NCBI GenBank assembly: GCA_951406725.2
Contig: OX597818.1
Span: 26,226,001-26,290,000, forward strand
DNA length: 64,000 bases
Reading direction: 5' to 3'
Source of the DNA: Octopus vulgaris
Lineage: Eukaryota
Positions within the stretch are counted from its first letter, which is position 1. Each line of letters opens with the position of its first letter. The translations under genes and the position numbers were made by a program. Below, piece after piece: positions 35,592 to 51,041 of the stretch. The notes beneath the pieces were generated by a model. It was not told the origin of the DNA. It ran no database searches and was given only the letters and a program-made list of their open reading frames with translations.

Positions 35592-35867
<276 letters not shown>

Positions 35868-46980: not shown

Positions 46981-48241
46981 CTGGTTTAGAAAATAAAGGA
47001 TTTTGTATAGCTTTGCAGTGAAGAAGTGATCAAGAACTAAAACTTGGTTACTATAGTAGTTGCAATAAAATTATGAACTATACATTCTGGATTAGTAAAA
47101 CAAAATTAGTATCATACTTACAGAATATCAAATATAAAAGAAAAACCCACCCCAAATGTTATGTTTCCTCCTCACAACCAGAAAACTTTTCAGTTTGTTA
47201 ACCTGTGACAAAGCATATGTGGAACCCATATTAAAGTACTGCTTACATATTAGAGATCAAGCTGTTGCCTGCAATGCATCCAATCATTCCAAAACAACTA
47301 CCTGATGTGTAAATTTTCACTCTTTAACACACTAAAACCATTGGCCTACATTGTTTGATGTCCTCTTTCCATGCTGTCACAGGTTGGATGGTCTGACATG
47401 GAGCTGTCCTTACTCCAACTGTCTGTTGTGGCAATAGTTTCTACAGGTGGATGCCCTTCTTAACATCAAACACTTAACAGCGTGCTGGGTGCCTTTTATG
47501 TGCCACCGTAATGGGTGTGTTTATGCAGCACCAGCACAGGTGTGTTAACACAGCACCAGCATGGGTGCTTTTTAAGTGGTATCAGCATCTGAAAGGGCAA
47601 GCCTGTATGTGTGGAAGACAGTGATTTTACTTAACTTGACATGTCTTATCCATTTCCTTCATGAGGCCCAGCAACCAAAGATAAATATTTTTCTTCTTCT
47701 ATTTCAACTATGTTTCCAACACCTCTGAACTATCAATTCATCTGATGAACATACTTTCCTCAACTGTTTCTCACTTATTACAAACCCCATGATATACAAT
47801 TTTACTAGTTCTTTCTCCTTAGGGTAGACAAATCATGGGCAAGGAACTACTTTCCTTATTCACATTTTCCCTACAAACATCAACATCAGCAATTTGAGAG
47901 ATTCTGCAAAACTATGAGTAATGCTATATTCAGAAAAATAATACAAAAACTTAACAAATCTAGTCAATAATGTCAATTGATCCTGAATGGATATATTAGC
48001 TATTTTCTTTAAATGAAATTATGTAAAACTTAAATCATCTATTCAAATGATCTCCAGTTTAAAATATGGTACACAGAACATTCCTTGAATAAAATGCTTG
48101 AGTCAGTTTTAATAAAATCAATAATTAAGAGAAGAAATGACTCTGAATATCCAGAGAAAGCAAATTTTAGAACACTTTCTGAGAAATTTATTCACACAGT
48201 AAAAATGGATTTTGGCAAAAATGTAAGTAAGAATTCTTTAC

Positions 48242-48304
48242 CTTTTCAACACCTTGTCCTCGAAGATACATCAGTCCTAATCCACACTGTCCAACTGCAT
48301 TGCC
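48242..48304 (-). CDS. SEL1L: SEL1L exon
   Basis: ttgtag|GGC...AAG|gtaaag; GNAVGQCGLGLMYLRGQGVEK. Confidence 0.95.
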
Positions 48305-48766
48305 CTACAAATACAATAAATGAAATGGTTTCTTATTAAAAACAATGGAATACAAATTATATTACAAACTTTGGATAGTAATATAGTTTTTAATTGTATT
48401 AGTTTCATAATCCATGTCAGACTGAAATTTCTGATTTACTCCATTTAGATTAATATACAAAATTTAACAAAACAAATAACCAAGAGTAGATTATAAAAAA
48501 AATTTCAGTTGTCATATTTAAAAAGATGTTTTAAATGCTTCTTTCTTATACAAGTCATTTATTGATGCTCTCATAGCTAAGTTAGAAATAAAAACAAAAG
48601 AATAATCTTAGACTATTGAAAAGTTATTACATTTTTTAAAAATTCTCTTATCAGTAAGTCTGCTTAGATTCTATCTACATAAATTAAGTACACTTTTGAA
48701 ATGACATACCATTTTTAAAGATTAATTTCAATAATAAGAAAATAATTGAAAAGCTAAAATACTTAC

Positions 48767-48844
48767 TTTTTCAGCAGCTTTTTTGAAGTAACTTATAGCA
48801 GTTTCATTGTTTTGCTTTACTACAGGACTACCTTCTGAATACAT
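48767..48844 (-). CDS. SEL1L: SEL1L exon
   Basis: ttccag|ATG...AAA|gtaagt; MYSEGSPVVKQNNETAISYFKKAAEK. Confidence 0.95.
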
Positions 48845-48901
48845 CTGGAACAATTAGAATGCAGATTACAATAAATTACTTTCAATATTATAATACTACA
48901 A

Positions 48902-49130
48902 GGCGGCAAGCTGGCAGAATCATTAGCACACCAGGCAAAATGCTTAGTGGTATTTCGTCTGCTGTTACATTCTGAGTTCAAATTCTGCCAAGGTCAACTT
49001 TGCCTTTCATCCTTTCGGTGTCAATTAAATAAGTACCGGTTATGCACTGGGGATTGATGTAACTGACTTAATCCCTTTGTCCTTGTTCGTCCCCTCTATG
49101 ATTAGCTCCTTATGGACAATAAAGAAATAA
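48902..49130 (+). mobile_element. SINE family A with TSD
   Basis: ATA(T/C)TATAATACTACAA on both sides. Confidence 0.88.
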
Positions 49131-49199
49131 ATACTATAATACTACAAATTTTTGCCTGTTTTTTATGAAATATAAAAATTTAACTAAAGTGTAAAGAGC

Positions 49200-49522
49200 C
49201 CCTGTGATCATGAATGACCATGGGATTGCACCTAGAAAGTTCCCCTCCAAGGCACAAATCCAGGCAAGGTTGTTTATGAAAGACCAGCAGTTACCCATGC
49301 ATACCAGCCTTCCCTCTCTATGTCACCGATGTTATCCAAGGGAAGGCAAAGGCCAAAACAGCTTGGCACCAATGACATTGCAACGCATTTCTACAGCTGA
49401 GTGAACTGGAGCAGCATGAAACAAGGTGTCTTGCTCAAGAACACAACACACAGCTCAGTCCAGGAATAAAGCTCACTACCGCATGATTGTGAACCTGACG
49501 CTCTAACCACTGAGCCATGCAC
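49200..49522 (-). mobile_element. tRNA-derived CORE-like SINE
   Basis: minus strand TGGCTCAGTGGTTAGAGCGTCAGGTTCACAATC head, TGTGTTCTTGAGCAAGACACC core. Confidence 0.8.
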
Positions 49523-49636
49523 CTTTAAAAATGTAACTACTGAAATAGAAATTTTTCTTTGATTGTAAAATGGGGGAGGGGGGGTAAATATTTTAAATAA
49601 ATATTTACACACTGGTTTTAATCACTAATTTCCACC

Positions 49637-50160
49637 GTTCTACATTTAAGAGATGAGGAATTATGTACATTATTTACATTTGACAGATATTTGTCCTCAT
49701 CTTGTTTGTTGCTAACACGTCTCAGCTGATATACCCTCCAGCCTTCATCAGATGTCTTGGGGAAATTTCGAACCTGGGTTCTTGTTCCTAAGGTATTTTT
49801 CAACGTTATTATTATTATTATTATTATTATTCAGGTCACTGCCTGGAATCGAACTTGTAATCTTAGGGTTAGCAGACCACGTTCTTAACCACTATGCCAT
49901 ATGCCTGTGGGCTTATTATGGCATATGGCATAGTGGTTAAGAGTACGGGCTACTAACCCCAAGATTCCAAGTTCGATTCCAAGCAGTGACATGAATAATA
50001 ATAATAATAATGATAACATCAAAAAATACCTCAGGAATGAGAACCTAGGTTCGAAATTTCCCAAAGACACCTAATGGAGGTTGGAGAGTATATCAGCCAA
50101 AACGTTGCGTTAACAACAAACAAGATGAGGACAAATATCTGTCAAAATGTAAATAATGTG
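49637..50160. mobile_element. palindromic twin tRNA-headed element with hammerhead-like tails
   Basis: arms ~49667-49905 and 49920-50159 are inverted copies; 12-bp direct repeat CTAATTTCCACC at 49625-49636 and 50161-50172. Confidence 0.85.
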
Positions 50161-50266
50161 CTAATTTCCACCTTTGAATTTAATGCTCAATTAAGAAAAA
50201 GTGATTTTTCTTGCATATCATCAATGATTCCTCTATATGTTTTAAAATGATGCATTCAGGTAACTC

Positions 50267-50319
<53 letters not shown>

Positions 50320-50349
50320 GTGTATATATGCATATATGATATATATGTG

Positions 50350-50816
50350 TAGCCAAGTGGAATCATAGTTGTGGTGCTTGTGAAGCTCCATCAACCCAAG
50401 TGAAATCATAGTTGTGGCCATTGTTGGTGTCATGTAACTGGTGGCACATAAAAAGCACTTTTTGAGCATTGGGCTTCACGGAGACAATGTGGCCGATGCT
50501 GGTGTCGCAGAACTAGCAACCATGCTGGTGGCACATAAAAAGCACCTTTTGAGTACTGAGCCTCACAGAAGTCATGACAGGTGACTGAGACCTTTGGCAA
50601 TATGCTGTGCTTGAGAAGGAAGAGCGATCAAGCTGGGTGAAACCATAGTTGTGGCAGATACTGGTGTCACATAACTGACACCTGTGCTGGTGGCATGTAA
50701 AAGCACCCATTTCACTCTCAGTGTTGTAGGCGTTTGGAAGGGCATCCAACTTACCAGTCCTGGTCAAACCATCCAACCCATGCCTGCATGGACAACAGAT
50801 GTTAAATGATGATGAT
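50350..50816 (+). mobile_element. RTE 3' end, decayed and rearranged
   Basis: GGTGGCACATAAAAAGCAC repeat units and (GAT)n tail. Confidence 0.75.
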
Positions 50817-50972
50817 GCTGATGGTGTGTGTTAGGATGTATACAGTAGTCAACAGTGAAAAGAATGGTTTATATATAAGGATGAGGATGAATGATAATTA
50901 TGACAATGAGGGCAACAAAGACTACTTCCAAAAGTGCTTTGCATATAAAGATAGAAAAAAATTTTAACTAAC

Positions 50973-51041
50973 CTTTCCAAGAAATGCCAAAGCTAAAGCA
51001 TTTCCTGATTCAGCAGCCATAAGAAAGTAGTGCAAAGCACG
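50973..51041 (-). CDS. SEL1L: SEL1L exon
   Basis: ttgtag|CGT...AAG|gttagt; RALHYFLMAAESGNALALAFLGK. Confidence 0.93.

Follow-up and report, generated by a model that had tools for sequence, protein, structure and literature searches.

A 524-bp insert in the Octopus vulgaris DNA analysed here (64,000 nucleotides in all, referred to as the window) is a dead head-to-head pair of pLTRs, ordinary in its layout and unusual in its tRNA-derived head. Sequence comparison assigns the arm, almost certainly, to an autonomous Penelope/Poseidon-type element in the same genome, as its pLTR. The explanation that best accounts for the whole, which we consider probable, combines this dead inverted pair with a head that likely acts as a Pol III promoter and would make SINE-like RNAs copied by the element's own enzyme. 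The features of the insert and its surroundings are as follows.

49625-49636, plus strand: target-site duplication, left copy, 12 bp; the last 3 bases are possibly the element's own
49637-49908, minus strand: left arm, read as a complete pLTR of a Penelope/Poseidon-type element, tail included
49637-49666, minus strand: terminal tail of ~30 nt, in this arm only; contigs end at both limits and RNA reads end at two matching places
49714-49756, minus strand: left hammerhead, minimal type I, decayed; GAAA box changed, 3-nt deletion in the palindromic stem III
49806-49831, minus strand: (AAT)n linker of the left arm
49845-49854, minus strand: B box of the left arm
49889-49899, minus strand: A box of the left arm
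49903-49912, no strand: head-to-head junction, a CpG-decayed form of the family quasi-palindrome; the autonomous element has the same just before its A box
49913-49922, plus strand: local 10-nt insertion, most of the apparent spacer, from comparison with family junctions
49909-50160, plus strand: right arm, read as a pLTR without the tail
49926-49936, plus strand: A box of the right arm
49971-49980, plus strand: B box of the right arm
49994-50016, plus strand: (AAT)n linker of the right arm
50037-50160, plus strand: remnant of a broken ORF N-terminus, from its match to P0003; ATG at 50037, early stop, hammerhead inside
50066-50111, plus strand: right hammerhead, minimal type I, decayed; two positions changed in the CUGAUGA box and one in the GAAA box
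50161-50172, plus strand: target-site duplication, right copy
48191-51041, minus strand: context, Sel1-repeat frames (Pfam) on either side of the insert

The first-pass annotation had described a 524-bp insert within a 12-bp duplication, and in the window sequence the direct repeat at 49625-49636 and 50161-50172 does bracket an insert of that length. Its final 3 bases coincide with the family's 3' end, so the length of the duplication may be anywhere from 9 to 12 bp. The A and B boxes, the (AAT)n linkers and the hammerhead-like tails were found where that annotation had placed them, and the tails at 49714-49756 (minus strand) and 50066-50111 (plus strand) are broken at different core positions, as it had also observed. 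The two arms are indeed inverted, with 88% identity over the aligned bases (208/237), but they are not the equal arms of ~240 bp first described; the left is ~272 bp long because the terminal tail of ~30 nt (49637-49666) is present there, and the right ends short of the tail. The 14-nt spacer seen between the arms was correctly noted at this locus. However, the usual family junction is free of a spacer and comparison with such junctions reveals a 10-nt insertion here (49913-49922), so the spacer is a local accident and not a family trait. Folding of the insert lies far beyond chance (z = -39), and RNA reading through it is predicted to form a hairpin of -350 kcal/mol. The Rfam models gave no tRNA or hammerhead match to the arms (E <= 10) or to an intact copy (E <= 5), and ARAGORN returned zero tRNAs within the window.

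In contigs from four sequencing runs labelled as other organisms, ends pile up at 49637 and 49666, and one of these contigs crosses the left flank junction of the insert. No junction skipping the insert, as expected of an empty site, was present among the matches listed from the contigs of the four runs. The insert lies between minus-strand Sel1-repeat coding frames at 48191-48304 and 50967-51041. The Pfam Sel1 model matched with E 1e-10 at 35592-35867 and weakly in the two flanking frames (E 0.005 and 0.07), and the insert likely sits in an intron of a SEL1L-like gene. Between 35592 and 55745 of the window the minus strand holds scattered Sel1-repeat coding frames, likely the exons of this SEL1L-like host gene. 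Other high-copy repeats occupy 49208-49524, directly to the left of the insert, and a weak tRNA-like stretch was observed at 49461-49524 (Rfam 15.6 bits, below the cut-off). At 50350-50700, behind a GT/GA microsatellite, lies another repeat, which itself contains direct repeats of 29-59 nt.

The identity of the arm follows from its position beside an ORF. Arm sequence was found right behind the ORF stop in 30/30 loci selected by their endonuclease-coding stretch (the query locus included, and some loci internally deleted), and it adjoins the ORF start in 26/30 loci selected by their N-terminal stretch. At one locus (L074) the stretch upstream of the head is common to other loci and reads like the end of a PLE ORF, and at another (L251) the tail continues in frame into the ORF. 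Using a three-sequence search, we matched the peptide encoded by hammerhead and tail in one copy (L027) to the N-terminus of P0003 with E 2e-9, and the right-arm peptide of the window to P0003 residues 18-40 with 61% identity (E 2e-5). P0003 is a full-length homologue of 847 aa that is 55% identical over the RT-EN part. The complete pLTR measures ~274 nt, runs from the head through (AAT)n and hammerhead to the tail, and encodes the first ~50 residues of the ORF.

This single ORF contains a PLE-type RT (RVT_1 E 5e-10 on L270; YVDD motif) and has 2,735 homologues at E <= 1e-30. A C-terminal GIY-YIG-type motif and C-C-H-H residues align with the homologues P0069 and P0073, which bear PF01541; PF01541 itself gave zero matches to the family's own proteins. 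The proposed involvement of Penelope machinery is borne out; the arm flanks an RT and GIY-YIG-type ORF in the autonomous element. Neptune elements are described as carrying a linker Zn finger, which serves as a criterion for PLE clades (PMC8557442). This finger is absent from the family alignment and present in the Neptune-like family L121, so by that criterion the ORF is Penelope/Poseidon-like. A search for an intact full-length copy found none, the longest open stretch being 569 aa. Neptune-like families, recovered in a search of the GIY-YIG family, were considered as partners of the arm and rejected, as none share it. One such family, observed at L121-L127 and in many other places, is young; its open RT and GIY-YIG frame of 781 aa is overlapped by another of 330-480 aa lying upstream, its direct repeats measure ~460-500 bp, and its many near-identical copies are inserted in (TA)n.

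Further copies were sought in the genome assembly, whose 227 contigs amount to 2.8 Gb. A consensus built from 35 arms at 30 loci shows intact A and B boxes and an intact minimal type I hammerhead, as the first-pass annotation had predicted from two arms mutated at different positions. Present in this consensus are the core boxes, stems I and II, an unpaired base before stem II, a palindromic stem III and an NUH site; the hammerhead was recognised by motif and stems, with no Rfam model score. Its 41-nt core motif has 1,117 exact occurrences in the genome, compared with 0 for the reversed control. The exact motif is found in 9/118 unselected arms, which by rough scaling gives ~14,600 arms genome-wide, and blind sampling, with 3 loci in forty 10-kb stretches, gives 4,300-61,000 loci. 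Median non-CpG divergence is 4.4% (52 arms). The hammerhead core has decayed by 4.2%, versus 4.9% elsewhere, as expected of dead copies; it is intact in 22 of the 40 arms that span it and in neither arm of this locus. In fold prediction the monomer favours a competing pairing by 1.4 kcal/mol. The contigs of the four runs labelled as other organisms, and RNA reads from one of these organisms, also contain the family, and there too it has these two 3' ends.

Several copies show further peculiarities. At the tail-less 3' end a 9-nt unit is present one to three times per copy (L078, L076, L157), as if the RT had slipped or re-primed at its start site. Other copies (L076, L084, L087, L089, L073) start at the (AAT)n linker, where they adjoin the (AAT)n with which another repeat ends; this suggests joining or insertion at AAT microsatellites. 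At four loci on two contigs (L037, L038, L040, L045) one inverted-pair insertion has been inherited through duplicated genes. The flank common to these four copies is explained by this single insertion, the flanking exons of which resemble what we take to be a macro-domain protein.

The inverted arrangement recurs across the genome, as had been supposed. Exact head-to-head junctions were observed at 202 loci, and tail-to-head junctions within 30 nt gave 0 genome hits. The usual junction reads CCC-AC/GT-GGG and is spacer-free (most of the 50 listed among the 202 loci). The full inverted dimer is not the fixed unit it was first taken for: partners are often 5'-truncated or eroded and solo copies exist, making the full dimer one outcome among many. 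We fetched 40 junction loci, of which 17 were dropped with the 3' part of one arm missing or low-scoring and 23 were counted. The tail is on one arm at 19 of these two-armed loci, on both at 2 and on neither at 2, and duplications of 9-16 bp flank 14 of the 23, where shuffling of the flank pairs gave 0.4%. Another collection comprises 32 divergent pairs, some possibly the same locus counted twice; here the tail is on one arm in 30 and on both arms in 0, with 7 expected (P 6e-7). The insertion signature of PLEs has been described as an inverted copy, a tail at one end, duplications of 8-10 bp and a palindrome at the pLTR 5' end (PMC8557442; PMC3846280). The combination of an inverted pair, a one-arm tail and 9-16-bp duplications observed here is this published Penelope insertion signature.

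Non-CpG variants are shared 3.5-4 times more commonly by paired arms than by random pairs, at 23/1,691 head sites and 44/9,397 tail sites (some loci possibly double-counted), and this excess fits a common source. The polarity of the central AC/GT shows no correspondence with the position of the tail (3 against 8), which fits two cDNAs annealing at the self-complementary head start but also later palindrome flips, and so does not separate fold-back from twin priming. Many pairs also carry large staggered deletions. These are likely the result of palindrome decay, from which the central 10-nt insertion may have spared the present locus.

The tRNA derivation of the head, claimed in the first pass, is supported by the A and B boxes in the consensus and by a best match to host tRNA-Arg(TCG), with the Rfam tRNA model silent. 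This match scored 44, compared with 14.7 +- 2.5 for shuffles, within a comparison set of tRNAs from 30 sampled host loci in which many isotypes are missing. The acceptor stem of the head is without pairing. Distant relatives (30-48% identity) were usable in 31 cases out of 80, those with the ORF end in view, and 0 of the 31 have a B box in the 700 nt that follow the match; relaxed ARAGORN on the relatives returned noise.

Exact 20-mers number 5,148 for the head and 1,027 for a point ~60 nt upstream, which scale to ~14,500 and ~2,000 copies. Of 54 head-bearing segments, 29 begin no more than 5 nt from the first A of the head, 4 at the junction, 14 inside the head and 7 upstream. Among the 17 segments that lack an inverted partner, 7 likewise begin no more than 5 nt from the head start. 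Five ORF-linked 5' pLTRs reach the head start; one stops there, so the full-length RNA need not begin at that point, and four continue into a preceding ORF end. Long copies therefore pass the head start in 4/5 cases, compared with 7/40 segments (P 0.01), a difference which suggests a short template distinct from the long one. The ORF stop codon is overlapped by a TATA-like motif, 32 nt upstream of the head.

The 2,634-nt consensus has 14 runs of three T and zero of four on its sense strand, a post hoc and weak result (P 0.026 by synonymous shuffle, P 0.06 and 0.2 by Markov tests). Natural copies, which are not independent of one another, contain 26 such T4 runs versus 97 expected, and the relatives 129 versus 133; among these relatives, which are without the tRNA head, 4/31 likewise show zero T4 runs across the matched ORF. 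RNA reads from three runs of a related organism contain the family on both strands, and 66-71% of them run into unlike sequence. Starts show no pile-up in these runs, the library type of which is ill-suited to showing Pol III RNA. Among RNA-read differences at L193:1400-2100 (runs X21-X23), A>G and T>C are the commonest and are mostly the reference copy's own mutations.

A short RNA is probably made from the head by Pol III. The pLTR is likely a built-in SINE, because ~14,500 heads stand against ~2,000 copies that reach upstream, 5' ends pile up at the head, and, more weakly, the sense strand lacks terminators. More tentatively, Pol III may read both the short pLTR, as a built-in SINE of ~15,000 arms, and the whole element, with the hammerhead possibly shaping an uncapped message. 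It is just as doubtful whether, within this last reading, a tRNA-derived promoter was taken into the terminal repeat and all Pol III terminators were lost from the 2.6-kb sense strand.

We propose the following route to the inverted pairs. Pol III would produce a short SINE-like RNA from the tRNA-like head, and this RNA would serve as a template for the element's own enzyme. The short template would begin at the head, ~32 nt behind the TATA-like motif. By analogy with the anole element PAc, the enzyme would cut both target strands and prime two cDNAs, and the use of two start sites ~30 nt apart would leave one arm with the tail and the other without. The cDNA ends would then meet at the self-complementary head start, or at chance microhomology if truncated, and be sealed head to head, with later deletions eroding many pairs. 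We give such twin priming modest odds over fold-back. Cleavage would require a hammerhead dimer or the help of protein, and both hammerheads of this locus are broken. Since the two hammerheads lie on opposite strands the pair cannot supply a dimer partner in cis, and with its transcript locked in the -350 kcal/mol hairpin the inverted pair does not serve dimer cleavage.

A less likely account, to which we nevertheless give some weight, is the ordinary truncation of a PLE. The head would then be a passive fragment of an old tRNA-SINE, the RNAs would be long Pol II transcripts, and the quasi-palindrome would make the cDNA fold back or stop. The autonomous element does carry a hairpin exactly at the head start, and short fold-back remnants of ~20 nt lie beside solo copies; Adineta elements, too, have been reported with a palindrome at the 5' end of the pLTR and with inverted junctions (PMC3846280). 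The TATA-like motif 32 nt upstream would equally fit Pol II, and the D. virilis element is described as having a LINE-like internal promoter (PMC2377424). However, a passive head sits uneasily with A and B boxes that are intact in the consensus, and truncation at the hairpin with long copies that pass it 4 times in 5. The 7/17 partnerless segments that also start at the head, and a sense strand without T4 runs where the pre-hammerhead regions of relatives are T-rich, argue in the same direction.

A separate non-autonomous ribozyme-SINE family, using borrowed Penelope enzymes and integrating as an inverted dimer, was the original interpretation and now appears improbable. It would account for short copies being ~sevenfold commoner than ORF-linked ones and for head-to-head junctions that recur at one point. 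Against it, the whole arm, head included, lies at both ORF ends of the autonomous element and codes for the ORF N-terminus, one consensus suits both short and ORF-linked copies, and the partner is truncated or eroded in most pairs. What survives of the SINE-like reading, in changed form, is the idea of a short RNA, most copies beginning at the head. A DNA transposon of the foldback type or a MITE, bounded by long terminal inverted repeats, which the long inverted arms within a short duplication resemble, or an assembly artefact, can hardly be entertained given the unequal ends, variable 5' truncation, duplication lengths of 9-16 bp and RT-coding parent element on the one hand, and on the other the same two ends in contigs of four other runs, one of which spans the left flank junction.

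With a dead pLTR pair and a putative Pol III-driven short template as the preferred reading, the closest known systems are PAc of Anolis carolinensis (PMC11167929) and Pen2/Pen2a of Adineta vaga (PMC3846280). As described in those reports, they share with the octopus element a single RT and C-terminal GIY-YIG-type ORF that starts inside the pLTR, a hammerhead over the ORF start, two 3' ends ~30 nt apart, an inverted 5'-side pLTR, duplications of ~10 bp and a palindrome at the pLTR 5' end. The tail of PAc was traced to two RT start sites, and its cleavage needed protein and was not required for insertion in vitro (PMC11167929). In contrast to these elements as described, the octopus pLTR opens with an A/B-box tRNA-derived head and an (AAT)n linker, its copies are mostly pLTR-only and start at the head, and its sense strand is without a T4 run. 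The hammerhead resembles the minimal type I hammerheads of metazoan PLEs in its 5-bp stem I, the unpaired base before stem II, the G-C pair that closes stem II and the palindromic stem III remnant (PMC4209133). Such motifs are reported 100-700 bp apart on opposite strands in metazoan PLEs (PMC4209133); compared with the hammerheads of that report, the octopus ones are known from sequence and both copies at this locus are broken.

The pairing of a Pol III-type promoter with a hammerhead in a short repeat is also known from Schistosoma SM-alpha and Sj-alpha (PMC6765202). These are described as tandem and non-coding, with the promoter at the 3' end of the cleaved unit (PMC6765202), whereas the octopus unit is part of a protein-coding element and is joined head to head, with 0 tail-to-head junctions. 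Animal non-LTR retrozymes are likewise short PLE-derived units with a type I hammerhead (bioRxiv 10.64898/2026.07.22.740005). They form head-to-tail tandem arrays, and their description as available makes no mention of a tRNA head; in the octopus family the search for tail-to-head junctions, up to 30 nt apart, gave 0. The TRIMp3 elements Cassandra, Helenus and Ajax have in their terminal repeat a Pol III promoter derived from a small RNA and are non-autonomous LTR elements whose autonomous partners are argued to need Pol II (PMC10886601). In the octopus, by contrast, the head lies in the repeat of the autonomous element itself, a PLE.

Ohshima and Okada in 1994 reportedly described the octopus tRNA-SINEs OK, OR1 and OR2. 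The heads of OR1 and OR2 derive from tRNA-Arg. The octopus pLTR resembles all three, compared here by description, in its tRNA-derived head. OR2 has been classed as a CORE-SINE (PMC4758252); in the pLTR the (AAT)n lies directly behind the head and leaves no room for a CORE domain, unlike OR2. Short non-autonomous Penelope elements have been reported in butterflies (PMC6685494) and algae (PMC8557442). The literature searches brought up no PLE whose pLTR is described as having a tRNA-derived head; the family may nevertheless have an entry in Repbase, Dfam or SINEBase.

Other hammerhead elements were observed in the same genome. Near-identical 359-bp tandem repeats, with a type I hammerhead in each, occupy L141:1900-4800 (C1:20.002-20.005 Mb). 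Their orientation changes at the ribozyme, so that two units lie on one strand and five on the opposite strand; this is a young retrozyme-like array with a head-to-head inversion. Two more unrelated minimal hammerhead motifs lie at L155:1-70 and in L167 (minus strand, near 1658). The finding of two unrelated hammerhead motifs in 400 kb of blind sequence indicates that other PLE-type families are common here.

Octopus repeat annotation is reported to contain many unclassified SINE families (PMC13282606), and annotators would misfile copies of this family as unclassified SINEs or as tRNA pseudogenes. Inverted pairs in introns are predicted to form long double-stranded RNA and could be substrates for editing. 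The family has thousands of insertions, their 3' ends falling at two defined points and their 5' junction at one, and provides a large natural test set for the origin of head-to-head inversion in PLEs. If it is true that Pol III reads the full element, this would be an exception to the need of autonomous retroelements for Pol II. SINEs are known to parasitise LINEs. In the present family a SINE-like unit and the machinery that drives it belong to a single element, and a Penelope element would in this way lead directly to a SINE-like family.
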